DNA of 64,000 nt from Escherichia coli (GTDB lineage Bacteria > Pseudomonadota > Gammaproteobacteria > Enterobacterales > Enterobacteriaceae), in the NCBI RefSeq assembly GCF_013122565.1, contig NZ_CP053258.1; one strand, 5' to 3'. The translations under genes and the position numbers were made by a program. Of this stretch, positions 3,162 through 28,585 are shown one piece after another; position 1 is the first letter of the stretch; each line of letters starts with the position of its first letter. The notes below the pieces were generated by a model that was not told where the DNA came from, ran no database searches, and saw only the letters and a list, made by a program, of their open reading frames with translations.

Positions 3162-3880
3162 CGCAGATGACGACCGCCATCAAGTGGGAAACTGCGTCCG
3201 GTGACAAAGCAACTGGTAAGTAAGTAATCGACCAGGTCGATCACTTCTTTCTCGCCAGGCGCGGTTTTCATCAGTGATTTATTCAGCGCCTGTTGTCGAT
3301 ATTCGGCATCATCATGTTCATTAAACAGGATCAGCGATGGCGCAATAGAATTCACTTTCACTTCCGGTGCCAGCTTGCGGGCAAACGAGCGGGTCATATT
3401 ATCCAGTGCCGCTTTGCTTGCAGCATACGCAATATGTTTGTCGCTACCGCGCTCCACCACATAATCGGTAAAGTGAATGATATCGCTGGCGGCGTGTCCG
3501 TGCCCACGCAGTAATCTTTCCAGCGCATGGTTGAGCAGGTATGGGGTATTAACGTGGATCTGCATCATGCAAGCCAGTACGTCGGCCAGTGGCGCACCCG
3601 GTTTTTCCGCCATCCACGCACTGGCGTTATGCAAAATAGCACGCAGACCATGGGTGCTTTTTAGTACTTCGTCGGCAAACGCCATCACACCGTCGTTGGT
3701 CGAAAAATCAGCCTGAATACACTGCGCACCTGCATTAATCAGTCCATCAATGGCTGGATAGTGCGTCCGATAGCTGACAATCACCGGTTGCTTTTGATTA
3801 ATGAAATGCCATGCGAGGGCGAGGCCGATGCGACGACCACCGCCAGTAATTAATATTGGCAAGGGCTGGGCTTTACCCAT
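3158..3880 (-). CDS. folM: Dihydromonapterin/dihydrofolate reductase FolM (SDR family)
   Basis: 240 aa ORF with N-terminal ITGGGRRIG Rossmann motif and YAASKAAL SDR active site. Confidence 0.85.
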   Translation of the reverse strand: MGKAQPLPILITGGGRRIGLALAWHFINQKQPVIVSYRTHYPAIDGLINAGAQCIQADFSTNDGVMAFADEVLKSTHGLRAILHNASAWMAEKPGAPLADVLACMMQIHVNTPYLLNHALERLLRGHGHAASDIIHFTDYVVERGSDKHIAYAASKAALDNMTRSFARKLAPEVKVNSIAPSLILFNEHDDAEYRQQALNKSLMKTAPGEKEVIDLVDYLLTSCFVTGRSFPLDGGRHLR

Positions 3881-3916
3881 CGTTATCTCCTTTGCTATCC
3901 AACGATGGGATGAACG

Positions 3917-5299
3917 TTATCCCACCAGCATCCAGGTCGCCGGAACTGAGGCAATTAACAGCATGCCAATCAGCACCATTTCCTGACGGTTCAGTACATT
4001 ATCATGGGTATGCGTTTTACGCGCGTACAGGAAAACCAGCAGCCCCGGTGCATACAGAACAACGGATAACAGCAAGTGCATTGGACCAGAGGCGTACAAT
4101 AACCATAAGCCATAAATGCAGGCACCGACACCTACCGCTTTATGCAGTGGACGGGTTGCGATTTTCAGCAAGAACGCGCCGACCAGGAAATAGGGCACCA
4201 GAATCATTTCTGAGGCGATGGTCAGCAACGTGTTGTAATCGGAACCGGTCAGCCAGATGAGTACCAGACAAATTTGCACGCAGATGTTAGTCAACCACAG
4301 TGAGGCGGATGGCGCAGCTTGTGCGTTCTGGCGCGCAAAAATGCGCGGGAATGCTTTATGAGTGGCGGCCAGGAACGGAACTTCTGCCGCCATGATGGTC
4401 CAGCTTAAGTACGCGCCGCAAACGGAAACGATCAAACCGGCAGCGATGATGATTTCGCCCCACGGTCCCATCATTTCCACCATCAGACCGGCCATTGACG
4501 GGTTACGAATTTCAGCCAGTTCAGGACGTGCCACCACACCCAGCGAAAGCAGCGTTACCAGCAAGTAAACGCCCAGAGCGGAGAGAACCGCCAGCAGTGT
4601 CGCTTTGCCAACATCACGTTTATTACGCGCACGCGCAGAAACAACCACGGCACCTTCCACACCAATGAAAACCCACAGGGTGATCAGCATGGTGTTTTTC
4701 ACCTGTTCCCACACGGGGACGCCAAGTGCAAGTCCGGTGAAGTCGAGCTTGAAGGTATCCAGTTTGAACATCATCATAGCCAGCACAACAAACAGACCCA
4801 GCGGCAACAATTTTGCCAGTGTCGCCACCAGGTTAATGCTGGCAGCGGTTTGCACCCCGCGCAGGATCAAAAAGTGAACAATCCACAATAAAGCCGATGC
4901 ACCGACGATCGATTGCCAGGTATTACCATCGCCAAACAGGCGCAATTCCGGCGTGTCCGTAAAAAAGCTTAACGCGGAAAAAACGATTACCAGATAGGAG
5001 ACGTTGGCGATGACTGCGCACAGCCAGTATCCCCATGCGGAACAAAAGCCGATTAGCTCGCCAAACCCTTCGCGGGCATAGGTAAAGATACCGCCGTCAA
5101 GTTCGGGACGAATGCGCGTGAGGATCAGCATGGCAAAGGCCAGTAATAAAATACCAGCGCCAGTGATACCCCAGCCGATGAGCAGTGCTGCCGGGCTGGC
5201 AACTGCCGCCATATTTTGCGGCAGACTGAAAACACCCGCGCCCAGCATTGAGCTTAATACCAGCGCGGTGAGTGCGCTCAGTCCCAGTTTCTTTTCCAT
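3917..5299 (-). CDS. ydgI: Putative arginine/ornithine antiporter (ArcD-like, APC family)
   Basis: 460 aa polytopic membrane ORF; recalled match to E. coli YdgI. Confidence 0.85.
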   Translation of the reverse strand: MEKKLGLSALTALVLSSMLGAGVFSLPQNMAAVASPAALLIGWGITGAGILLLAFAMLILTRIRPELDGGIFTYAREGFGELIGFCSAWGYWLCAVIANVSYLVIVFSALSFFTDTPELRLFGDGNTWQSIVGASALLWIVHFLILRGVQTAASINLVATLAKLLPLGLFVVLAMMMFKLDTFKLDFTGLALGVPVWEQVKNTMLITLWVFIGVEGAVVVSARARNKRDVGKATLLAVLSALGVYLLVTLLSLGVVARPELAEIRNPSMAGLMVEMMGPWGEIIIAAGLIVSVCGAYLSWTIMAAEVPFLAATHKAFPRIFARQNAQAAPSASLWLTNICVQICLVLIWLTGSDYNTLLTIASEMILVPYFLVGAFLLKIATRPLHKAVGVGACIYGLWLLYASGPMHLLLSVVLYAPGLLVFLYARKTHTHDNVLNRQEMVLIGMLLIASVPATWMLVG

Positions 5300-6889: not shown

Positions 6890-8485
<1,596 letters not shown>

Positions 8486-8492
8486 GGGGTAA

Positions 8493-9884
<1,392 letters not shown>

Positions 9885-9888
9885 CCCT

Positions 9889-9920
9889 GACGGCCTCTGC
9901 GGAGGCCGTCACTCTTTATT
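9889..9920. terminator. Stem-loop between convergent pntB and tqsA (possible bidirectional terminator)
   Basis: GACGGCCTC-TGCG-GAGGCCGTC perfect 9 bp stem followed by T-rich tract. Confidence 0.5.
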
Positions 9921-10857
9921 GAGATCGCTTAACAGAACGGCGATGCTTTGACCTCCCGCTGTTTGTTCAAGCGCAATTTTGACAATAATTGTTAACGGCA
10001 CGGAAAGCAGCATACCCACCGGTCCTAACAACCATCCCCAAAAAATCAACGACAAAAATACCACCAATGTGGAAAGTCCCAGCCCACGCCCCATGATGCG
10101 TGGCTCCAGAATATTGCCGAAGACCAGATTAATCAGCAGATATCCCGCCAGCACCAACAACGCTTCGTAGAAGCCATTAAACACCAGTACCTGAGCGATA
10201 ATCGAGGGCGGCGAGCATCGCCCATGCGACCAGGCCGGTGATGATGCTGATGGCTGTTTTCAGCACCAGATAATGAGACACACTGTCAATCGCACGCTGA
10301 ATCGCCGCCATCCCTTCAACCGGACGCGCCATCATTTGCTGAAATTTTCCGGGCAATTGTGGCACTTCGAGCAGCATAAACAGCACCGTCAGCAGCAATA
10401 AAAATATTGATGACATGGCATTAGATAACTGCGTCAATAAGTTGGTGAGCAACGTCATCGCCGCGTTCGGATCAATGTAATGCGCCAGTTGGTCAACTGA
10501 GACGTCAATCCCTACGCGTTGCAACAACGGCTCAAGAGCTTGCAGCGGCGTCATAATAGAGTTGCGATATTGCGGTAACGTCCGCGTCAACTCGTTGAGC
10601 GCGGAACCCAGATAAGCTAACAGCAACACCATAGCCATCACGATGATGGTCATCAAAATCGACACCGCCAGTACACGCGGCACTCGCCAGCGGACCATGT
10701 GTTGCACCAGCGGGTTAAGAATAACAGCAATAAATAATGCGAGAATAAACGGCACGATGATCTCGGCGGCAAAACGGATACCGCAGAGAATAATGACCAG
10801 CATTCCCAACATAATGACGATTTTTAGGCCATTGAGCGTGATGATCGGCTTTGCCAT
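9909..10857 (-). pseudogene. tqsA: AI-2 exporter TqsA (AI-2E/PerM family) interrupted by frameshift or internal deletion
   Basis: Two collinear same-strand ORFs (10177..10857, 226 aa, and 9909..10184, 91 aa) correspond to N- and C-terminal parts of one transporter; frames switch near 10180-10215. Confidence 0.7.
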
Positions 10858-17550: not shown

Positions 17551-18246
17551 ATGCTGAAGCGTTTCTTTATTACCGGTACAGACACTTCTGTAGGGAAAAC
17601 GGTGGTTTCCCGCGCATTGCTACAAGCGTTAGCCTCCCAGGGAAAAACGGTTGCGGGATATAAACCCGTAGCGAAGGGGAGCAAAGAGACACCCGAAGGG
17701 CTGCGTAATAAAGATGCCCTGGTGTTGCAGAGTGTTTCAACCATCGAACTGCCTTATGAAGCAGTTAATCCTATCGCGTTAAGCGAAGAAGAAAGTAGCG
17801 TGGCGCACAGTTGCCCAATCAATTACACCCTCATTTCAAACGGCCTGGCAAACCTGACCGAAAAAGTCGATCATGTCGTGGTAGAAGGGACTGGCGGCTG
17901 GCGCAGTCTGATGAATGATTTGCGTCCACTCTCTGAATGGGTGGTGCAGGAACAACTGCCGGTGTTGATGGTTGTCGGTATTCAGGAAGGTTGCATTAAC
18001 CATGCACTGCTAACAGCTCAGGCGATTGCCAACGACGGGCTGCCGCTCATTGGCTGGGTGGCTAACCGAATCAACCCAGGACTGGCGCATTATGCGGAAA
18101 TCATTGATGTGCTCGGTAAAAAACTTCCGGCACCGCTCATTGGTGAACTGCCTTATCTGCCGCGCGCCGAACAGCGTGAACTGGGGCAATACATCCGCTT
18201 AGCTATGCTGCGCAGTGTGCTGGCGGTAGATAGAGTCACGGTGTAA
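17551..18246 (+). CDS. ynfK: Dethiobiotin synthetase paralog (BioD-like)
   Basis: ORF track 17539..18246; start [17 protein letters not shown] (P-loop); 231 aa. Confidence 0.85.
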
Positions 18247-19455
18247 CGTCCGCGAGATTACCGACGCAATTACGCAGGCAATCAATAAACCGGGGAGTAG
18301 CTGATACTCCCCGGTCATTTCACATATCATCAACGTCGACATAATCGGCGCGTGCGTGGTTGCCGCCAACAGTGTCGCCATCCCGGTCAATCCGAGTAAA
18401 AGCGTAATTTCTTCGCCATCAGGGAACCATAATCCCAGGCTACGACCATACAACATGCCAATGGCAAGACCGATAAATAGCGTCGGTGTAAAGACACCAC
18501 CGGGTGCGCCGGAACCGCTACTCGCCAGCACGGCACACAGTTTACAAAGGAAGATCCCGGCAATGATCATTAACAGTGGCGGGGCGGTTAAAAAGGATTG
18601 TACGGTGCTATAGCCGTTGCCCCACACTGCAGGTGTGAACAGGGAAAGCAGACCCACGATCAACCCGCCTAGTGCCAGTTGCCAGGGCGGCGCAAGTTTG
18701 AGACTCACAAATCCACGATGACAGGCGTTCATTAACGTTAACAACAGTGGTCCGCACAGACCTGCCAGCACACCTGTACTGATAATCAGCGCATAGTCAC
18801 GAGCCTGAACCGTCACTGAGAGTTGTACGCTGTAGAGTAACGCGTCGCTATGATTAATCAGATTGCTAACCAGCAATGCCACGACAGCGGAAATAATCAC
18901 CGGGCCGAGAGAGGCCAACATCATAGTGCCAAACAGCACTTCGGCTATAAATAAACTGCCAGCAAGCGGGGCGCGATAGGCCGCAGCCATTCCCGCCGCA
19001 GCTCCACAGGCGATCCATAATTTCCACTCCTGGCGTGGCGTAAAACGTTGGGTAAAACAGGAGGCGGCAAGGGCAGCTAAAAGAATCATCGCACCTTCGC
19101 GACCAATTGCACTGCCGCTGGTTACTACCAGCAGAGAGGCAAGCGATTTAACCAGGCTTGCTGCGTAATCAAACTGCCCATCGGTTTGCAACGCTTCCAT
19201 ATAATCGGTCGGCGCATGAGGGCGTTGCTGGGTAAATTTCTGCCAGCCCATCAGCAACAAACCCGCCGCCAGTCCGCCGAGCGCCGGAGTTAGCAGCCGT
19301 CGCCACGGGGAAAGATTTGTCGCTGCATTGACCAGACTGCCGGAGTCATTATTGAGGAACAACCACTCCAGTAGCAGCATCGCATGACGAAACCCGGCAA
19401 CGGCAAAGGCCGCGAGAATACCGACGGCTGTTGCGATAAGCAGACGGCGGAACAT
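18199..19455 (-). CDS. clcB: ClC-family voltage-gated chloride channel ClcB
   Basis: ORF track 18199..19515; likely start [12 protein letters not shown]; 418 aa; GSGIP-type selectivity motifs. Confidence 0.85.
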
Positions 19456-19648
19456 AGTGCGCAGATCCGGATAGATGTGTAGATGATGCATGAGCAGAAA
19501 TGGGCAATGAAACACGGGCGACTATTTTGCGGCAAAAGAGGCCAGCTGCAAAAGCAGTGCGTGCTTTAAGAGACAAAAAACGTGACACTGTAACGTATTG
19601 TTGCCGAATCGCGCGTAATCGTCACCATCCGGCAATATTACGGTGATC

Positions 19649-20263
19649 CTATCGAAACAGCGGTTTAACCGCGACAGGAATTAACAGTTGTGATTGCCAT
19701 TGCGCCAGCGTTAAGCGAGCCAGTTCACCCAGTGCACGGTAGAAAGGGTGTTCTGCTTTTTCGATAAAAACATCAAGAAAACGTGTTGACCACGGAAAAA
19801 GGTGCCATGCCAGCAATTCTTCGCATTCTGTCTGGCGACCATTCTCCGCCAACCACGCAGCCATCAACAGCAGCGAACCAAAATGATCTTCCGGTTCATT
19901 TTGCTTCATTTCAAACTGAATGCCTTTCTCGCGCATCCACTGACGAAGTGCCAATGTTGAATCGCCAAACAGCACAGATTCGCGATCCAGCCAGACCGAC
20001 CCCCACGGCGGAGACGGCAGTGCCCACGGGCCGACAAACAAACGCTGCCAGGCCTGGGCGTGAGTCTCTTCACACTGTGCCTGAAAAGCCGTCACCAGCG
20101 GCGCTAATGACGCTTCTGGTAGAGGCCACTGAGTTTCCCAGCCGTCACGGGTGAGTACCGCAACCAGAGGTGCGGCTTCCGCACTCTCTGGAGCGTAATA
20201 AAACAGCGCGCCCAACACGCGCGCCACGACAGAAAAATTATCTTGCTGTGAAAAATGGGTCAT
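19649..20263 (-). CDS. dmsD: Tat proofreading chaperone DmsD
   Basis: ORF track 19649..20272; start MTHFSQQDNFSV; 204 aa. Confidence 0.9.
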   Translation of the reverse strand: MTHFSQQDNFSVVARVLGALFYYAPESAEAAPLVAVLTRDGWETQWPLPEASLAPLVTAFQAQCEETHAQAWQRLFVGPWALPSPPWGSVWLDRESVLFGDSTLALRQWMREKGIQFEMKQNEPEDHFGSLLLMAAWLAENGRQTECEELLAWHLFPWSTRFLDVFIEKAEHPFYRALGELARLTLAQWQSQLLIPVAVKPLFR

Positions 20264-20305
20264 TCCTAACATCCTGAAATGTGCGGGTTGCCCCGCACCA
20301 ATTTG

Positions 20306-21160
20306 TTAACCTGCAATAGCCATTCCTACCGTCATGTGCAGGCCATAAAAGAGCACACGCCCGATCATCTCACCGCCAAGAATGAGGATTAACCCCAGAA
20401 TAAGTCCGGCAACGTGTGGTTCACGGCGACGTATGAGCGGACAAAGCCAGCATCCTAGACCTGCGCATAACAATACCACACGCCAGACCTGTAAGGAGGC
20501 GTAATCTGGTACCAGTGCGCTGGCTTGTTGTACGGATGAGTAAATAGACGACAGAGACAAACCTTGCAGCACAATCACCCCGGCACAAGCGATCAGCGCC
20601 AGAACGCTAATGATGGCAAATGGTGTGGTATTAAATGTAACGCGGGCTGCCCGCAGAATTGCGGCAGCAAGTATTGGACCACTCAACAATACCGTCAGGA
20701 AGAAAGCCAGCGTAGTGTAACCGTTATGCCAGGTTGGCACAGTGTCGATTTGATACACGCAGGTCATCATCCAGACGAAAATGACGCCGAGCGCCATGCT
20801 GACAAGTAACCAGAGTTTCCCCAACGCTTGCGGCATTTTACCGATGACCGCCACCAGCCACCATAGTCCGCCAACGGCAAAAAATATGGAACCGGCAGCA
20901 ATCTCGTTACTCAGACCAGAAGCTCCGATTCGATTCAGTGAGTTAAACGCCCGCAGTGGCGATCCCAGGTGCATGACAGAGGCAATAAACCCGATGCCCA
21001 TCAACAGCCAGAGGAAAAACATGCCACGAACAATGTGCTGACGGTCTGTGTCATTTTTGGCGGCGAACCAGCCAATTCCGCTAACAATCAGCGCGCCTAC
21101 TACGCATTGACCCAATACGGTAAAGATAACCAGTGGCCATTCATGCCATCCATTTCCCAT
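20306..21160 (-). CDS. ynfH: DMSO reductase-family membrane anchor subunit (DmsC-like)
   Basis: ORF track extends to 21400 but likely start is MGNGWHEWPLVIF at 21160, 2 bp after ynfG stop; 284 aa polytopic protein. Confidence 0.85.
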   Translation of the reverse strand: MGNGWHEWPLVIFTVLGQCVVGALIVSGIGWFAAKNDTDRQHIVRGMFFLWLLMGIGFIASVMHLGSPLRAFNSLNRIGASGLSNEIAAGSIFFAVGGLWWLVAVIGKMPQALGKLWLLVSMALGVIFVWMMTCVYQIDTVPTWHNGYTTLAFFLTVLLSGPILAAAILRAARVTFNTTPFAIISVLALIACAGVIVLQGLSLSSIYSSVQQASALVPDYASLQVWRVVLLCAGLGCWLCPLIRRREPHVAGLILGLILILGGEMIGRVLFYGLHMTVGMAIAG

Positions 21161-21161
21161 T

Positions 21162-21779
21162 TTACACTTCCTCCGGATTAGCCAGATAACCAGTGGTATC
21201 GCCGGTCGGGCGGCTGTTGGCGTTAGGTTTGATAACGATATTGGGTTTTGTGAAATGCGCGCGCGGCAGTGGCGCGACGGCAGCAAGAGTGCCGTGCTTC
21301 TGGCGCAGCTCTTCAATTGGACCGAACTCAAGTGCACGCAGCGGGCAGGATTCGACACATATGGGTTGTTTCCCCTCGGCGACGCGCGAATAACAACCAT
21401 CGCACTTCGTCATGTGCCCTTTTTCAGCATTGTACTGTGGCGCGCCGTACGGACAAGCCATGTGGCAGTAGCGGCAACCGATACAAACATCTTCATCAAC
21501 CACCACAAAGCCATCTTCACGCTTATGCATTGCGCCGCTGGGGCAGACTTTTGTACATGCGGGGTCATCGCAATGGTTACAGGAGATGGAGAGATAATAA
21601 GCGAACACGTTCTGGCGCCAGACGTCATTATCTTCCTGCCAGTCGCCGCCAGCATATTCATAAATACGGCGGAAACTGACTTCCGGGCCAAGATCTTTAA
21701 AATCTTTGCACGCCAGTTCGCAGGTTTTACAGCCAGTACAGCGGCTGGAATCGATAAAAAATCCATATTGTGTGGTCAT
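21162..21779 (-). CDS. ynfG: DMSO reductase-family 4Fe-4S ferredoxin subunit (DmsB-like)
   Basis: 205 aa with four CxxCxxCxxxCP clusters. Confidence 0.9.
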   Translation of the reverse strand: MTTQYGFFIDSSRCTGCKTCELACKDFKDLGPEVSFRRIYEYAGGDWQEDNDVWRQNVFAYYLSISCNHCDDPACTKVCPSGAMHKREDGFVVVDEDVCIGCRYCHMACPYGAPQYNAEKGHMTKCDGCYSRVAEGKQPICVESCPLRALEFGPIEELRQKHGTLAAVAPLPRAHFTKPNIVIKPNANSRPTGDTTGYLANPEEV

Positions 21780-21789
21780 GGGCTACTCC

Positions 21790-24216
21790 TTAAACCTTTT
21801 CGATCTGAACAAGATTGCTGTGCGACGGGTTTCCCTTTGCCAGCGGTGAAGGGCGGTGAGAGGTCAGAATATTGATACTGCCGCCGTGATCGACCCGGTC
21901 ACCAAACATATCCGCTTTAAGCCACGCACCTTGCCCGATGGCGGTAACGCCAGGCAGAATACGCGGAGTCACTTTTGCGGCAATCAGCATTTCTCCATTA
22001 TTGTTAAATACCCGCACGGTATCGCCATGACGGATACCGCGTTCCTGAGCATCAATGGGGTTGATCCACACCTCTTGTGGGCAGGCCTGCTGTAACACAT
22101 CAATATTGCCGTAGCTGGAGTGGGTACGTGCTTTGTAGTGGAAGCCCGTTAGCTGCAGTGGATAGGTTTTCCGCAGGGGATCGTCCCAGCCATCAAAACC
22201 TGGGGTATACGCAGGAAGGGGATGAATAATTTCATCTTTTTTCAATTCCCAGGTATCTGCAATCTTCGCCAGTCGTTCAGAATAAATTTCGATTTTCCCC
22301 GAAGGTGTTTTCAACGGGTTTGCCTGTGGATCTTCACGGAATGCGCGGAAAGCGACGTAGTGTTCTTCCGGGCATTTTTTCTTAAAGATCCCGGTCGTTT
22401 TCATCTCCTCGTAGTCGGGCATCTCAGGGTTACGTTCCTTCGTTTTCGCATGGAGATATTTGATCCATTCATGCTGACTGCGACCTTCAGTAAAGGTTTG
22501 ATAAACGTCCGGTCCTAAGCGTTTGGCGACTTCACTCAGCATCCAGTAGATGGGTTTGCGTTCAAATTTTGCTGAGGTTGCGGGTTGGGCGAGGATCACA
22601 TAGCCCATATTCCCTGCAGATTCATGAGAGATAAGGTCTTCTTGCTCTGTTGGCATCAGGTCGGGCAACAGGATATCGCAATACTTAGCCGAGGCCGTCA
22701 TGAAGTGGTCAATGCCGACAATCATCTCGCACTTGCTGTCATCCTGAAGCACCTCATGGGTGTGATTGATGTCGCCATGTTGATTGATCAATGTGTTACT
22801 GGCGTAGCACCATAAAAACTTGATGGGGACATCCAGTTTTTCTTTTCCACGAACACCATCACGGGTCGCGGTCATTTCCGTACCATGGTCGATGGCATCT
22901 GTCCATGTAAAGACGGAAATCTGCGTTTTAACAGGATTGGCTAGCATCGGGAACCATTCTACCCCCAGATCCCAGCTACCTTCGCGTACACCTGAGTTGC
23001 CGCCGTTTATGCCGACGTTACCGGTGAGAACGGAAAGCATGGCAATAGCGCGGGACGTTTGTTCGCCGTTGGAATGTCGTTGTGGCCCCCAACCCTGACA
23101 AATATAAGCAGGTTTTGCTGAACCGATCTCTCGTGCCAACTGGATAATTTTTTCTGCCGGGATGCTGGTGATTTTTGCTGCCCATTCCGGCGTTTTAGCT
23201 ATGCCGTCAGGCCCTTCGCCCAGAATATAGGCTTTATAATGCGCGTTACGTGGTGCGTTGGCGGGCAGCGTTTTTTCATCGTAACCAACACAATATTTGT
23301 CGAGAAATGGCTGATCGACCATGTTTTCAGTAATCAGTACCCAGGCAATCGCACAGGCCAGTGCGCCATCGGTGCCAGGGCGAATGGGCAGCCATTCATC
23401 TTCACGCCCGGCAGCTGTGTCGTTATAACGTGGATCGATGACGATCATGCGTGCGTTTGAACGTTCGCGGGCTTGCTCGACGTAGTAAGTGACACCACCA
23501 CCGCTCATCCGCGTTTCTGCCGGGTTATTTCCGAACATAACGACCAGTTTCGTATTGGCGATATCATCCGGGCTGTTGCCATCATTGGCACCGAACATAT
23601 AACTCATTGCGGCACTGATCTGTGCGGTACTGTAGCTGCCATAGCGACTGAGAAAACCACCGCAAGAGTTCATCAGACGGTACGGGACGTTTGAGTTGGT
23701 GATGTTTCCGCCATCTACACCTGTTCCGTACAGGACATGTACAGCCTCATTGCCGTAATCTTTTAGGATCCGCCGAAGATTATCACTGATGGTATCCAGG
23801 GCTTCGTCCCAACTTATCCGTTCAAATTTACCTTCACCGCGCTTGCCGACGCGCTTCATGGGATATTTCAACCTATCAGGATGATTCATCCGTCGGCGGA
23901 TAGAGCGCCCGCGTAAACACGCACGAACCTGATGATTACCGTAGACGTCGTCACCTGTCGTATCAGACTCCACCCAGTACACGGTGTCATCTTTCACATG
24001 CAAACGTAACAGACAGCGGCTCCCGCAGTTAACGGTACAGGAACTCCAGACCGCTTTCTCTTCTACCGGGGCCTCTGCCGCCCGGACCATTTGGGAAAAT
24101 GGCAGAGTGAAAGCACTGCTTGCCAGCGCAAGACTGCCAAGTGCGGAGGTTTTCATCAGACTTCTACGGCTGATTTCAGCCTTCATGAGCGCCTCTGTGG
24201 TATGGATTTTCATCAT
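21790..24216 (-). CDS. ynfF: Molybdopterin oxidoreductase catalytic subunit (DmsA paralog, putative selenate reductase)
   Basis: 808 aa; Tat signal SRRSLMKTSALGSLALA; molybdopterin-binding domains. Confidence 0.9.
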   Translation of the reverse strand: MMKIHTTEALMKAEISRRSLMKTSALGSLALASSAFTLPFSQMVRAAEAPVEEKAVWSSCTVNCGSRCLLRLHVKDDTVYWVESDTTGDDVYGNHQVRACLRGRSIRRRMNHPDRLKYPMKRVGKRGEGKFERISWDEALDTISDNLRRILKDYGNEAVHVLYGTGVDGGNITNSNVPYRLMNSCGGFLSRYGSYSTAQISAAMSYMFGANDGNSPDDIANTKLVVMFGNNPAETRMSGGGVTYYVEQARERSNARMIVIDPRYNDTAAGREDEWLPIRPGTDGALACAIAWVLITENMVDQPFLDKYCVGYDEKTLPANAPRNAHYKAYILGEGPDGIAKTPEWAAKITSIPAEKIIQLAREIGSAKPAYICQGWGPQRHSNGEQTSRAIAMLSVLTGNVGINGGNSGVREGSWDLGVEWFPMLANPVKTQISVFTWTDAIDHGTEMTATRDGVRGKEKLDVPIKFLWCYASNTLINQHGDINHTHEVLQDDSKCEMIVGIDHFMTASAKYCDILLPDLMPTEQEDLISHESAGNMGYVILAQPATSAKFERKPIYWMLSEVAKRLGPDVYQTFTEGRSQHEWIKYLHAKTKERNPEMPDYEEMKTTGIFKKKCPEEHYVAFRAFREDPQANPLKTPSGKIEIYSERLAKIADTWELKKDEIIHPLPAYTPGFDGWDDPLRKTYPLQLTGFHYKARTHSSYGNIDVLQQACPQEVWINPIDAQERGIRHGDTVRVFNNNGEMLIAAKVTPRILPGVTAIGQGAWLKADMFGDRVDHGGSINILTSHRPSPLAKGNPSHSNLVQIEKV

Positions 24217-24273
24217 TACTCACTTATTGCTTTTCAAACAAAATGTCATGCCAGAATTTATGGTTGTAGTGGG

Positions 24274-26700
24274 TTATATTTTTTCGATCTCGACCAGATT
24301 CGTGTGCTGCGGGTTTCCCTTCGCCAGTGGTGAAGGGCGCAGAGTGGTTAGCGTATTCACACAGCCTCCATGGTCGATTTTATCGCCAGACATATTGGCC
24401 TCATGCCAGGCTCCCTGGCCCATAGCGCTAACCCCAGGGAGAATGCGTGGTGTCACTTTGGCTGGTAGCCGAACTTCGCCACGATGGTTAAACACCCGCA
24501 CCATATCGCCGTTGGCAATCCCACGTTTCTGTGCATCTATAGGGTTGATCCACACCTCCTGACGGCAGGCAGCCTTCAGGACATCAATGTTGCCGTAGGT
24601 CGAGTGAGTACGGGATTTGTAATGGAAACCAAACAGTTGCAGTGGGAAGGTACTACGTTCAGGGGAGTCCCAGCCTTCAAAGGTTGAGGCATAAACCGGC
24701 AGTGGGCTTATCACTTCATCTTTTTCCAGTTCCCAGGTACGGGCAATTTCCGCCAGCTTGCTGGAATAAATTTCAATCTTACCGGAAGGCGTTTTAAGTG
24801 GATTTGCCTCGGGGTCGTCACGAAATGCTTTGTAGGCGACAAAATGACCATTGGGATCTTTACGCTTATAGATACCCATTTTTTTCAGTTCGTCGTAAGA
24901 CGGTAACGCCGGATCTTTGGCAAGCATTTTGGCGTACAGATGTTGTAACCATTGTTCCTGCGTGCGACCTTCTGTGAACTTTTGATAGACGTCAGGTCCA
25001 AGACGTTTCGCGACTTCACTCAGGATCCAGTAAATCGGTTTACGTTCGAATTTTTCGCTGGTGACTGGCTGGAGGAAAATGAGATATCCCATGTTACCGG
25101 CGTAGTCGTTAGGAATAATATCTTCCTGCTCAACGGTCATCAGGTCTGGCAGCAGAATGTCGGCATATTTTGCCGATGAGGTCATAAAGTTTTCGATGAC
25201 CACAATCATTTCGCATTTCGATTCGTCTTGCAGAATTTCATGCGTTTTGTTGATGTCAGAATGCTGATTAACGAGGGTATTTCCCGCGTAGTTCCAGATA
25301 AACTTAATGGGCACATCCAGTTTATCTTTGCCCCGGACACCGTCGCGGAGTGCCGTCATTTGCGGGCCATGATCGATAGCATCCGTCCAGCTGAAGCAGG
25401 AGATTGACGTTTTGACCGGATTATCCAGCACCGGTAGGCGTTCTATCGTAATGGTATAGGTCGATTCACGCGCGCCACTATTTCCGCCGCTGATGCCGAC
25501 ATTGCCCGTCAAAATAGGCAACATAGCAATAGCGCGTGCGGTCAGCTCACCGTTTGCCTGGCGTTGCGGCCCCCAGCCCTGGCAGATATAAGCGGGTTTT
25601 GCTGTGCCAATTTCACGAGCCAGCTTGATGATACGGTCCACCGGGATACCGGTAATTTGCGAAGCCCACTGCGGCGTTTTCGCTGTTTTATCATCACCTT
25701 CACCAAGAATATAGGCTTTATAGTGACCATTTTTTGGTGCATCTGCGGGTAAGGTTTTTTCGTCATAACCGATGCAGTATTTATCGAGAAAAGGTTGATT
25801 AACGAGATTTTCGTTAATCAATACCCAGGCAATACCCGCCACCAGCGCGGCATCGGTGCCCGGGCGAATAGGGAGCCATTCGTCTTCACGACCGGCAGCC
25901 GTATCGGTATATCGCGGATCGATAACAATCATTTTTGCGTTCGATTTTTCGCGCGCTTTTTCAAGAAGATAAGTGATGCCACCGCCGCTCATACGTGTTT
26001 CTGCCGGGTTGTTACCAAACATCACGACCAGCTTGCTGTTTTCGATATCCGTGGTGCTGTTGCCATCATTACTGCCGTAGGTGTAGGGCATGGCACAGGA
26101 AATTTGCGCAGTGCTGTAGGAGCCATACTGGTTGAGTGAACCGCCGTAGCAGTTCATCAGACGTTTGACCGCCGAGGCGGATGGCGATGAGCGGGTCATA
26201 TTGCCGCCAACGATCCCCGAAGAGTACTGAATATATACAGCCTCATTGCCATATTGTTCGACGGTTTTTTTCAGGCTACTGGCGATAGTATCCAGGGCTT
26301 CACCCCAGCTAATCCGTTCGAATTTGCCTTCGCCGCGTTTGCCCACGCGTTTCATTGGATAATTCAAGCGATCGGGATGATTAATACGCCGACGGATGGA
26401 GCGACCGCGCAAACAGGCGCGTACTTGATGATTGCCATACTCATCGCTGCCGGTGTTGTCAGTTTCCACCCAGGTCACTTCATTATCTTTAACATGTAGA
26501 CGAAGTGCACAGCGGCTACCACAGTTGACGGAACAGGCACCCCAGACCACTTTTTCGCTGGCCTGTTGTACCGCTGCCGCTGCACTGCGCAGGGTGAACG
26601 GTAAAGAAAAACCGCCTGCAGCCAGCGCCAGAGAACCTATCGCGGTAGATTTAACGAGTGTTCTGCGGCTGATGCCCACCATTTGTTCATTTTTGGACAT
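24274..26700 (-). CDS. ynfE: Molybdopterin oxidoreductase catalytic subunit (DmsA paralog, putative selenate reductase)
   Basis: 808 aa; Tat signal SRRTLVKSTAIGSLALAA; highly similar to ynfF (tandem paralogs). Confidence 0.9.
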   Translation of the reverse strand: MSKNEQMVGISRRTLVKSTAIGSLALAAGGFSLPFTLRSAAAAVQQASEKVVWGACSVNCGSRCALRLHVKDNEVTWVETDNTGSDEYGNHQVRACLRGRSIRRRINHPDRLNYPMKRVGKRGEGKFERISWGEALDTIASSLKKTVEQYGNEAVYIQYSSGIVGGNMTRSSPSASAVKRLMNCYGGSLNQYGSYSTAQISCAMPYTYGSNDGNSTTDIENSKLVVMFGNNPAETRMSGGGITYLLEKAREKSNAKMIVIDPRYTDTAAGREDEWLPIRPGTDAALVAGIAWVLINENLVNQPFLDKYCIGYDEKTLPADAPKNGHYKAYILGEGDDKTAKTPQWASQITGIPVDRIIKLAREIGTAKPAYICQGWGPQRQANGELTARAIAMLPILTGNVGISGGNSGARESTYTITIERLPVLDNPVKTSISCFSWTDAIDHGPQMTALRDGVRGKDKLDVPIKFIWNYAGNTLVNQHSDINKTHEILQDESKCEMIVVIENFMTSSAKYADILLPDLMTVEQEDIIPNDYAGNMGYLIFLQPVTSEKFERKPIYWILSEVAKRLGPDVYQKFTEGRTQEQWLQHLYAKMLAKDPALPSYDELKKMGIYKRKDPNGHFVAYKAFRDDPEANPLKTPSGKIEIYSSKLAEIARTWELEKDEVISPLPVYASTFEGWDSPERSTFPLQLFGFHYKSRTHSTYGNIDVLKAACRQEVWINPIDAQKRGIANGDMVRVFNHRGEVRLPAKVTPRILPGVSAMGQGAWHEANMSGDKIDHGGCVNTLTTLRPSPLAKGNPQHTNLVEIEKI

Positions 26701-26799
26701 AACTCACTCCCTGTTCTTTATCGTTATATAAAAGTTTATATATTGAATATTTAGCGCGCTAATAATAGAGGGAGTCTACCCATTTTGGGTTAAGAGTTA

Positions 26800-26813
26800 T
26801 TAATCCATATCAA
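26800..26813. promoter_or_regulatory. Candidate FNR box upstream of ynfE
   Basis: TTAAT-CCAT-ATCAA resembles FNR consensus TTGAT-N4-ATCAA; about 100 bp upstream of ynfE start. Confidence 0.4.
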
Positions 26814-26898
26814 TAGAAGGGTATGAGTAATAAGGTGGGATTATGTTGTATGTTCAAATCGCCGGATGTGTCGTATCCGGCGTTCAGTCGATAATGTA

Positions 26899-27204
26899 TT
26901 ACTGTGGTTCGGCAGGCGCGCCATCCTGGGTAGACTGCGCGGGAGCAGAGACGTTACCGCTGGTGGTGCGGGTGTAGAGAATTTTATGCGTATCATTAGC
27001 GCAATGCCCGACGACCTGGGAATCAGGCTGATCAACCTGGTCATTGGGTACAATACTTAACGTGAAGCTGCTTTCGGGTACGCCATTATTGATAATGCGC
27101 TGTGATATATCGCTCTGTATGCGCTCACAGGATCCCGGCGCGGCGAGTACCGCGGGTGAGGCGAGGGCGAGCAGAAGCGTGGCACAGCAGGTTGAGAGTT
27201 TCAT
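26899..27204 (-). CDS. ynfD: Small periplasmic protein YnfD (DUF1161)
   Basis: ORF track 26899..27246; likely start MKLSTCCATLLLALASPAVLA (signal peptide); about 101 aa. Confidence 0.75.
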   Translation of the reverse strand: MKLSTCCATLLLALASPAVLAAPGSCERIQSDISQRIINNGVPESSFTLSIVPNDQVDQPDSQVVGHCANDTHKILYTRTTSGNVSAPAQSTQDGAPAEPQ

Positions 27205-27311
27205 CATAAGCTCCTTACGCGAAGATAACTTCTTTAAGCATAGCATTTAACGTGTAAAGTACTGTATTTGCTACTATGATTGAGAATCATCTCTACTCTC
27301 TGGTGACTGAT

Positions 27312-28022
27312 GTGAAATACAAATTACTGCCATGCTTACTCGCGATATTCCTCACAGGATGTGACCGCACAGAGGTAACACTTTCATTTACCCCTGAGAT
27401 GGCCAGTTTCTCTAATGAATTCGATTTTGATCCGCTGCGTGGTCCGGTAAAAGATTTCACTCAGACATTAATGGATGAGCAAGGTGAAGTGACGAAACGT
27501 GTTTCTGGGACTTTGTCGGAAGAAGGCTGTTTTGATTCACTCGAATTACTGGATCTGGAAAATAATACCGTGGTCGCTCTGGTACTGGACGCCAATTATT
27601 ACCGTGATGCCGAGACGCTGGAGAAGAGAGTACGTTTACAGGGAAAATGCCAGCTAGCAGAATTACCTTCTGCCGGGGTGAGTTGGGAAACCGATGATAA
27701 TGGCTTCGTGATTAAAGCCAGCAGCAAACAGATGCAGATGGAATATCGCTATGATGATCAGGGGTATCCGCTGGGTAAAACCACGAAAAGTAACGACAAA
27801 ACATTATCTGTCAGCGCCACGCCATCAACGGACCCGATCAAAAAATTAGATTATACAGCGGTTACTTTACTGAATAATCAACGGGTTGGTAATGTAAAAC
27901 AGAGCTGTGAATATGACAGTCACGCCAATCCGGTGGACTGTCAGCTAATCATTGTTGATGAAGGAGTAAAACCCGCCGTCGAACGGGTTTACACCATCAA
28001 AAATACTATCGATTATTATTAA
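27312..28022 (+). CDS. ynfC: UPF0257-family lipoprotein
   Basis: ORF track 27276..28022; likely GTG start at 27312 giving VKYKLLPCLLAIFLTGC lipobox; about 236 aa. Confidence 0.75.
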   Translation: MKYKLLPCLLAIFLTGCDRTEVTLSFTPEMASFSNEFDFDPLRGPVKDFTQTLMDEQGEVTKRVSGTLSEEGCFDSLELLDLENNTVVALVLDANYYRDAETLEKRVRLQGKCQLAELPSAGVSWETDDNGFVIKASSKQMQMEYRYDDQGYPLGKTTKSNDKTLSVSATPSTDPIKKLDYTAVTLLNNQRVGNVKQSCEYDSHANPVDCQLIIVDEGVKPAVERVYTIKNTIDYY

Positions 28023-28024
28023 TA

Positions 28025-28585
28025 CTATTGTGCGGTCGGCTTCAGGAGAGTCTGACCCGGTGTTTTGTGCTCTGCCAGATACTGATGCTGGAATATACAC
28101 ATGCGAATGGCATTACGATATTGACCATTAATAAAGAACTCGTGCATCAATTCACCTTCAACCGTAAAGCCAAGCTTGCGGTAAATGTGAATCGCTTTTT
28201 CATTCTCTTTATCGACGATCAGATACAGCTTATAGAGATTGAGAACGGTGAAGCCATAGTCCATTGCTAATTTGGCGGCACGGGTTGCCAGACCTTTCCC
28301 CTGATACTCCGGGGAGATAATTATCTGAAATTCTGCCCGGCGATGAACATGGTTAATTTCCACCAGCTCCACCAGACCGGCTTTTTCGCCGTCACATTCC
28401 ACCACAAAGCGCCGTTCGCTCTGATCGTGAATATGCTTATCATACAGATCAGAGAGTTCAACAAAGGCTTCGTAGGGTTCCTCAAACCAGTAACGCATCA
28501 CACTGGCGTTATTGTCGAGTTGATGTACATAGCGTAAATCTTCACGCTCCAGCGGGCGTAGCTTAACACTGTGGGCGCTTGGCAT
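28025..28585 (-). CDS. speG: Spermidine N1-acetyltransferase SpeG
   Basis: 186 aa GNAT-fold ORF; translation [23 protein letters not shown] matches SpeG. Confidence 0.92.

Follow-up and report, generated by a model that had tools for sequence, protein, structure and literature searches.

The closest described relatives of the locus considered here are the dimethyl sulfoxide (DMSO) reductase DmsABC of Escherichia coli and the ynfEFGH-dmsD operon of E. coli K-12 (ynfEFGHI; b1587–b1591). DmsABC is a heterotrimer. It shares with the ynf enzyme the same three-subunit design and motifs, a 10-nucleotide (nt) spacer between the genes for the A and B subunits and, according to the literature, the same dependence on DmsD. 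However, the dmsABC operon encodes one catalytic subunit and lacks a gene for a chaperone, whereas the ynf operon has two catalytic subunits, or heads, together with dmsD, and the substrates reported in the literature for the two enzymes differ. Here we describe the ynfEFGH-dmsD locus in a stretch of 64,000 nt from E. coli contig NZ_CP053258.1 (hereafter the window). Very probably it is the usual E. coli operon, which has been studied in depth and is paralogous to dmsABC; it is intact and contains nothing new. The present analysis adds corrected start codons, evidence that ynfE and ynfF are an ancient pair, and a number of side observations.

Two selenate-reducing systems from other genera offer further points of comparison. 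SrnABCD of Enterobacter cloacae has a YnfE-clade head with an identical SRRTLVK motif, accompanied by genes for B and C subunits and a TorD-like chaperone, and srnA carries an FNR site, ttgatgaggattaa (PMC12724226). Unlike the operon in the window, it has only one catalytic subunit and lacks YnfF. The layout of srnABCD, with one YnfE-type head followed by ynfG, ynfH and dmsD, recurs in the Enterobacter loci that we found. SerABC of Thauera selenatis is likewise a selenate reducer with molybdenum bis(pyranopterin guanine dinucleotide) (Mo-bisPGD) that is exported by way of twin-arginine translocation (Tat), but it belongs to the type II branch of the DMSO reductase family, is soluble in the periplasm and lacks a DmsC-type anchor. 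SrnA and SerA are only 24% identical (PMC12724226). Against the type II alpha-subunit model TIGR03479, which has a cut-off of 985 bits, YnfE scored 228 bits and YnfF 235 bits, and the operon does not encode a Ser-type selenate reductase.

The genes in the window correspond to those of K-12 in content, order and spacing. In the open reading frame (ORF) listing, ynfE, ynfF, ynfG, ynfH and dmsD are five intact minus-strand genes without internal stops, and the span 19649–26700 has the dmsD stop codon and the ynfE start codon as its exact limits. At the DNA level the region shares 98.3% identity with K-12 b1587–b1591 and 98.7% with strain A30, with the same gene order and RefSeq names, and its flanks are also those of K-12 (mlc, bioD2/bidA and clcB on one side; ynfD, ynfC, speG, ynfB and ynfA on the other). 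Differences from the K-12 proteins are allelic only, amounting to 12 amino acids (aa) in YnfE, two in YnfF, two in YnfG, six in YnfH and three in DmsD. Among 5426 complete E. coli genomes, megablast matches covered at least 80% of 19000–27400 in 5060, with a best full-length identity of 98.7%. We corrected start codons against the RefSeq annotation of K-12 and A30. The ynfF ORF extends over 24216..21790 (808 aa), but its accepted start is the second ATG, at 24213 (807 aa). The longest ynfH ORF (21400..20306, 364 aa) over-extends upstream into ynfG, and the gene starts at 21160 (284 aa), while the dmsD ORF (20272..19649, 207 aa) has its start at 20263 (204 aa). The resulting spacers are 60 nt between ynfE and ynfF, 10 nt between ynfF and ynfG, 1 nt between ynfG and ynfH, and 42 nt between ynfH and dmsD.

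Both heads were assigned by curated models. YnfE scored 1793 bits against its NCBIfam model NF041885 (cut-off 1675) and 1473 bits against the YnfF model, and YnfF scored 1773 bits against NF041884 (cut-off 1650) and 1481 bits against the YnfE model. An earlier note on this DNA had named all five genes as we do; each of the five passes a curated family threshold, and the RefSeq names are the same. The note had also described the heads as two paralogous proteins of 808 aa. Their identity is not low (565 of 801 positions, or 71%, E = 0), so the paralogy holds, but the length applies to YnfE and not to YnfF, which has 807 aa by its accepted start. Identity to K-12 DmsA is 67% for YnfE and 65% for YnfF. 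The two proteins belong to TIGR02166, the "DMSO/selenate family", and share the domain order PF04879 (Fe4S4), PF00384 (molybdopterin oxidoreductase) and PF01568 (molybdopterin guanine dinucleotide-binding).

Sequence motifs in the heads are those expected of DmsA-type enzymes. A twin-arginine signal (S/T-R-R-x-F/L-x-K) is present as SRRTLVK at residue 11 of YnfE and as SRRSLMK at residue 15 of YnfF. Together with published experiments, including a demonstration of Tat export for Salmonella YnfE (PMC5203670), these motifs support the Tat dependence that the earlier note had proposed. The cysteine group of the FS0 cluster (C-x3-C-x3-C...C) is found in YnfE as CSVNCGSRC (cysteines 56/60/64/96) and in YnfF as CTVNCGSRC (cysteines 59/63/67/99). 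The molybdenum-ligand serine lies within GSYSTAQ, at Ser196 of YnfE and Ser195 of YnfF, and aligns with Ser147 of Rhodobacter DMSO reductase (1EU1) and S205 of DmsA. YnfE and YnfF are thus predicted to be Mo-bisPGD oxo-transfer enzymes of DmsA type, for which the published evidence is genetic. The PDB holds no solved structure of the enzyme, and the closest entry is 1EU1 (E = 2.7e-74). As a side observation, ynfE was two to three times more polymorphic than ynfF among three genomes (the window, K-12 and A30). Relative to K-12, ynfE was changed at 63 nt and 12 aa, compared with 21 nt and 2 aa for ynfF, and the comparison of K-12 with A30 showed the same trend.

The remaining subunits also follow the Dms pattern. 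YnfG scored 266 bits against the DmsB-type model TIGR02951 (cut-off 214) and has 16 cysteines in four groups of four, at positions identical to those of DmsB. YnfH matched Pfam DmsC (PF04976) with 423 bits over profile positions 1–275 of 275, and simple hydropathy gave eight hydrophobic segments, as in DmsC. DmsD scored 346 bits against the equivalog NF008632 (cut-off 162) and is near-identical to the solved E. coli DmsD structures PDB 3U41, 3EFP and 3CW0 (456 bits to 3U41/3EFP, E = 1.5e-136, residues 1–204). Divergence from the dms system is uneven across subunits, as YnfG is 93% identical to K-12 DmsB in protein and YnfH 56% identical to DmsC. By contrast, synonymous sites between ynfG (window 21162–21779) and K-12 dmsB (3415–4032 of the K-12 dms locus, L002) are saturated, with a proportion of synonymous differences (pS) of 0.74 and a nonsynonymous to synonymous rate ratio (dN/dS) of 0.013 (codon-aligned Nei-Gojobori estimates, here and below). 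The high identity of YnfG and DmsB, compared with 65–67% for the catalytic subunits and 56% for the anchors, and the saturated pS show that the electron-transfer subunit is under unusually strong constraint. Gene conversion was considered as the source of the 93% identity and rejected, since, given the same pS and dN/dS values, strong purifying selection accounts for that identity. The B subunit of ynf operons in other genera also scores nearer to K-12 DmsB than to the YnfG of the window.

Taken with published work, these features suggest that YnfE and YnfF act as alternative catalytic heads on one shared module. One anaerobically activated FNR-type promoter 5' of ynfE would drive all five genes. 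Each head, with its DmsA-type Mo-bisPGD, FS0 [4Fe-4S] cluster and serine molybdenum ligand, would have its twin-arginine signal bound by DmsD in the cytoplasm during cofactor insertion, after which Tat would export the folded head together with the signal-less YnfG, and the two would dock on the membrane anchor YnfH. YnfH would then oxidize menaquinol, and the electrons would travel by way of the four clusters of YnfG, and then FS0, to the molybdenum site in the periplasm for the reduction of an oxo-acceptor (selenate, tellurate and probably also S- or N-oxides). DmsD also matures DmsA, encoded elsewhere, and the iron-sparing small RNA RyhB additionally represses ynfF translation via the ynfE-ynfF spacer. 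Gene identities, motifs, paralogy, duplication age and conservation of the FNR-like site were computed here, while the dependence on Tat and on DmsD, the phenotypes with selenate and tellurate, and regulation by FNR and RyhB come from the literature. We infer two elements of this scheme, namely the physiological substrate and the assembly of the heads into alternative heterotrimers, YnfEGH and YnfFGH, instead of a single complex of four subunits.

The relationship between the heads might be explained by a recent tandem duplication or by a pair homogenized through gene conversion, as the genes are adjacent, equal in length and 71% identical. Their synonymous sites do not fit this history. Between ynfE and ynfF, pS was 0.70 (synonymous rate, dS, about 2) and dN/dS was 0.10, and either gene compared with dmsA gave a pS of 0.75. 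Third-position identity was uniformly low (0.33–0.59 in 40-codon windows throughout), the longest in-register exact run was 17 nt, and neither of these two scans found gene-conversion tracts between the genes. We also scanned species-representative genomes with a YnfF query and YnfF-derived peptide patterns, which recovered at least 78 loci, and classified the ORFs by BLASTP. In a tree of 92 catalytic subunits and 790 columns, built by neighbour joining only and from sampling biased to YnfF-like patterns, a YnfE clade and a YnfF clade were each recovered in 200 of 200 bootstraps and were sisters in 200 of 200, with DmsA outside. The YnfF clade takes in genes of Morganella, Serratia and Kluyvera, and the YnfE clade includes Enterobacter, Kosakonia, Kluyvera, Buttiauxella, Rahnella and Rouxiella as well as one Pasteurellaceae gene (198/200); both include genera with only one of the two heads. 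Because orthologues of each copy form separate clades that span families, the split is older than the divergence of Enterobacterales families. By these sequence measures, YnfE and YnfF are ancient paralogues. The saturated synonymous sites, the lack of an identity tract and the tree refute recent duplication or conversion, to which we give almost no weight, and the tandem duplication described in the earlier note stands as a pair of adjacent paralogues but not as a recent event.

How two old heads are used by one module bears on the remaining alternatives. The genes are adjacent and predicted to be co-transcribed, and the literature often writes of a "YnfEFGH complex", so both heads might sit with YnfG and YnfH in a single heterotetramer. 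We consider the heterotetramer unlikely. The established heterotrimer of DmsABC argues against it, as do the functional-looking one-head operons of many genera. Alternative trimers are also favoured because SrnA alone makes up for the loss of selenate reduction when ynfEF is deleted in E. coli, which the authors put down to a posited pairing of SrnA with E. coli YnfG and YnfH, and because they model SrnABC as a heterotrimer (PMC12724226), because a Salmonella ynfF deletion keeps activity via YnfE alone (PMC5203670), because RyhB represses ynfF (PMC4666370), and because ynfF deletion pseudogenes beside intact ynfE are frequent, occurring in about 10% of complete E. coli genomes. That frequency, and the small contribution of YnfF to selenate reduction in Salmonella, could also mean that one catalytic gene is a decaying, non-functional copy in the present strain. 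This is very unlikely, as both ORFs are full length with all motifs, ynfF differs from K-12 in only 2 of 807 aa, and the dN/dS between the paralogues is low. A further alternative concerns the substrate. A link to selenate, raised in the earlier note, is in the literature: PMC5203670 cites Guymer 2009 for it, and deletion of ynfEF abolishes selenate reduction in E. coli (PMC12724226). However, according to PMC5203670, a purified-enzyme assay had not been developed, which weighs against selenate as the physiological substrate and means that it may be an adventitious one. The physiological role could instead be that of a back-up or specialized S- or N-oxide reductase (for DMSO, methionine sulfoxide or similar compounds), with selenate and tellurate reduction as a side activity. 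The DmsA-type serine ligand in both heads, their 65–67% identity to DmsA and their membership of TIGR02166 fit this role, as does the absence of a direct selenate reductase assay from the literature (PMC5203670). In addition, PMC12096835 treats YnfE and YnfF as S-/N-oxide reductases, with an induction by hypochlorous acid (HOCl) of about 2-fold, and reports that ynfE is up-regulated in a dmsA deletion. On the other hand, clear phenotypes from loss of function have been reported only with selenate and tellurate, and the single-head E. cloacae orthologue SrnA is required for selenate reduction. We regard a primary S- or N-oxide role as a serious contender, though one that we lean against.

Signals around and within the operon are consistent with its expression as a unit. 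The five genes are predicted to form one FNR-dependent transcription unit, being co-directional with short spacers, a conserved FNR-like site and no internal terminator. The site, TTGATatggATTAA, lies within the 198-nt ynfD-ynfE spacer and is identical in K-12, and the same or a similar site occurs at −103 to −115 in Salmonella, Citrobacter, Enterobacter, Kosakonia and Phytobacter. By comparison, an FNR site with at most one mismatch is found in only 2.9% of 300-nt windows taken at random. PMC10845959 cites Xu et al. 2009 and Kang et al. 2005 for the dependence of the operon on FNR. Two results weigh against this assignment: FNR-like matches in the window as a whole (5, with 3.1 expected) were not above chance, and no match to a canonical sigma-70 promoter turned up when the sequence upstream of ynfE was scanned. 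The FNR-like site is supported instead by its position, its conservation across genera and the literature, and the lack of a sigma-70 match is as expected for an activator-dependent promoter. A canonical sigma-70 promoter for ynfE, or an internal one for dmsD, was rejected, since the scan returned three promoter-like sites where 8.6 were expected, none of them in the spacers. None of the spacers held a terminator-like site on the operon strand in a consensus scan, whose minus-strand matches were all inside coding sequence. Hairpin CGCCGGATacgacacATCCGGCG probably serves as the terminator of ynfD and bounds the ynfE transcription unit on its upstream side, and the imperfect hairpin that precedes GUUUUUUG is a putative terminator at the downstream end. 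Hairpin GTGCGGGGCAACCCGCAC, between ynfH and dmsD, is possibly an mRNA-stabilizing or partial-termination element; it might uncouple or stabilize the expression of dmsD, which is also needed for DmsA maturation.

The ynfE-ynfF spacer contains a second regulatory region. Its last 19 nt (24232–24214, AAGCAATAAGTGAGTAATG) take in the ribosome-binding site of ynfF and show complementarity to the core of RyhB, with a predicted duplex of −20.8 kcal/mol with RyhB nt 31–60. RyhB has been shown to repress ynfF translation through the region from −60 to +24 in a ynfF fusion (PMC4666370). The ynfE leader also pairs moderately with the RyhB core (−17.6 versus −20.8 kcal/mol). With core-only energies this close, the specificity of RyhB for ynfF is not explained by pairing energy alone. 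Full-length duplexfold favoured ynfF (−35.4 kcal/mol), and 4 of 200 shuffles were as good. We therefore rejected pairing energy as a discriminator between ynfE and ynfF and rely on the published experiment.

Table 1. Genes and candidate expression signals of the ynfEFGH-dmsD locus, in window coordinates
Feature	Position	Strand	Description
GC-rich hairpin CGCCGGATacgacacATCCGGCG	26860..26882	-	Directly 3' of the ynfD stop codon; read from sequence
FNR-type site TTGATatggATTAA	26800..26813	-	One mismatch to TTGAT-N4-ATCAA; 113 nt 5' of the ynfE start codon
ynfE	24274..26700	-	808 aa, predicted Tat-exported Mo-bisPGD catalytic subunit
ynfE-ynfF spacer	24214..24273	-	60 nt; one base different from K-12
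ynfF	21790..24213	-	807 aa, second predicted Tat-exported catalytic subunit; 808 aa from preceding ATG at 24216
ynfG	21162..21779	-	205 aa, four-cluster ferredoxin subunit, without its own signal peptide
ynfH	20306..21160	-	284 aa, DmsC-type membrane anchor, quinol-oxidizing subunit
ynfH-dmsD spacer hairpin GTGCGGGGCAACCCGCAC	20281..20298	-	7-bp GC-rich stem, GCAA loop, no U-run after; identical in K-12
dmsD	19649..20263	-	204 aa, Tat proofreading chaperone (TorD/NarJ family)
Terminator-like long imperfect hairpin, then GUUUUUUG (U-run)	19576..19648	-	3' of dmsD; fold −26 kcal/mol, z = −2.0

Other features of the region were of minor importance. ORFs antisense to the operon occur on the plus strand at 19783–20154, 21255–21875, 21269–21679, 23984–24562 and 25795–26139. 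Four of these five, along with one out-of-frame minus-strand ORF, were scanned and gave no Pfam match at E ≤ 0.1, so that we rejected them as real genes. This agrees with the earlier note, which had called antisense ORFs inside the large genes spurious, and is consistent with the antisense and out-of-frame ORFs having no coding role. Structured RNAs such as a molybdenum cofactor riboswitch were also sought, and 18000–28500 gave no Rfam match at E ≤ 1. In the neighbouring clcB (18199–19515), the longest ORF has 438 aa from a GTG at 19515, compared with RefSeq lengths of 418 aa for the K-12 gene and 430 aa for that of A30, which indicates that the clcB start is annotated inconsistently.

Across the genomes scanned, the operon takes several forms that differ in which heads are present. 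The full order ynfE-ynfF-ynfG-ynfH-dmsD was found in Escherichia, Salmonella enterica subsp. arizonae and diarizonae, Citrobacter amalonaticus S646 and Pseudocitrobacter. A single YnfE-type head with ynfG, ynfH and dmsD is the arrangement in Enterobacter, Kluyvera ascorbata, Kosakonia, Phytobacter, Buttiauxella and Rouxiella, and a single YnfF-type head occupies the same place in several Citrobacter species. In five Rahnella loci (L029, L031, L052, L058 and L078) and in Mesocricetibacter (L061, Pasteurellaceae), one set of B, C and DmsD genes is common to two heads, the first from the YnfE clade and the second from the DmsA clade. In Kluyvera cryocrescens (L046) and the gut isolate Enterobacteriaceae MGYG-HGUT-00110 (L050), dmsABC is followed directly by a YnfF-type head with its own B and C genes. 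The YnfF-clade gene of three Serratia loci (L017–L019) has no adjacent B or C genes.

Several individual loci show altered or missing heads. In E. coli Ecol_AZ153 (L083, NZ_CP019000.1), ynfF is a pseudogene with deletions of 274 and 581 nt, corresponding to window 21872–22145 and 22920–23500, and lies beside an intact ynfE. Some match to ynfEF was present in 5323 of 5426 complete E. coli genomes, and the segment 22930–23490 in 4761, a difference of about 560 genomes, or about 10%. The genomes that exemplify the pseudogene are human isolates, and ynfF is intact in the present window. In Citrobacter youngae (L010), Citrobacter sp. Cu233 (L011), C. werkmanii (L012) and probably one further locus (L009), the single catalytic gene is a hybrid, in which a YnfE-type promoter, leader and Tat signal (alignment columns 1–55) are joined at the conserved K-x-VW to a YnfF-type body. 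The mature body is 90–96% identical to YnfF references, compared with 52–86% to YnfE references, and the gene looks like the product of unequal recombination between tandem paralogues. Genes called "YnfE" in this Citrobacter group fall in the YnfF clade. In Citrobacter sp. HRGM_Genome_0066 (L071), ynfE has been cleanly deleted, with positions 7470–9972 of the C. amalonaticus S646 locus (L007) replaced by about 106 nt. This deletion, which spares the promoter with its FNR site and leaves ynfF with a signal peptide of its own, is an independent route to a one-head operon. In Escherichia sp. MOD1-EC7003 (L004, 7525–9937), whose locus is 95.7% identical to the window DNA, ynfE appears to be split near codon 220–236 into two tblastn pieces in different frames, through either a frameshift that makes it a pseudogene or a fault in the assembly.

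One possible interpretation, which we put forward tentatively and hold to be doubtful, is that the ynfE-ynfF tandem is evolutionarily unstable. Two ancient heads with overlapping but distinct substrates may compete for one YnfG-YnfH-DmsD module while their control is partly separate (RyhB acting on ynfF only), and lineages may repeatedly collapse to one head. The routes would include the YnfE-only operons, the HRGM_Genome_0066 deletion, the fusion of a YnfE signal to a YnfF body in the C. freundii group and the ynfF pseudogene of E. coli. For the window itself, the significance is small and consists in the correct annotation of a textbook E. coli locus. The substrates of YnfE and YnfF, and the reasons that two heads have been kept, make a modestly interesting wider question. 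The ancient paralogy and the repeated, independent reduction to one head call for caution against naming every single-head orthologue "YnfE". If the tandem is indeed unstable, the head that a strain has kept would predict its range of oxyanion or S-oxide substrates.

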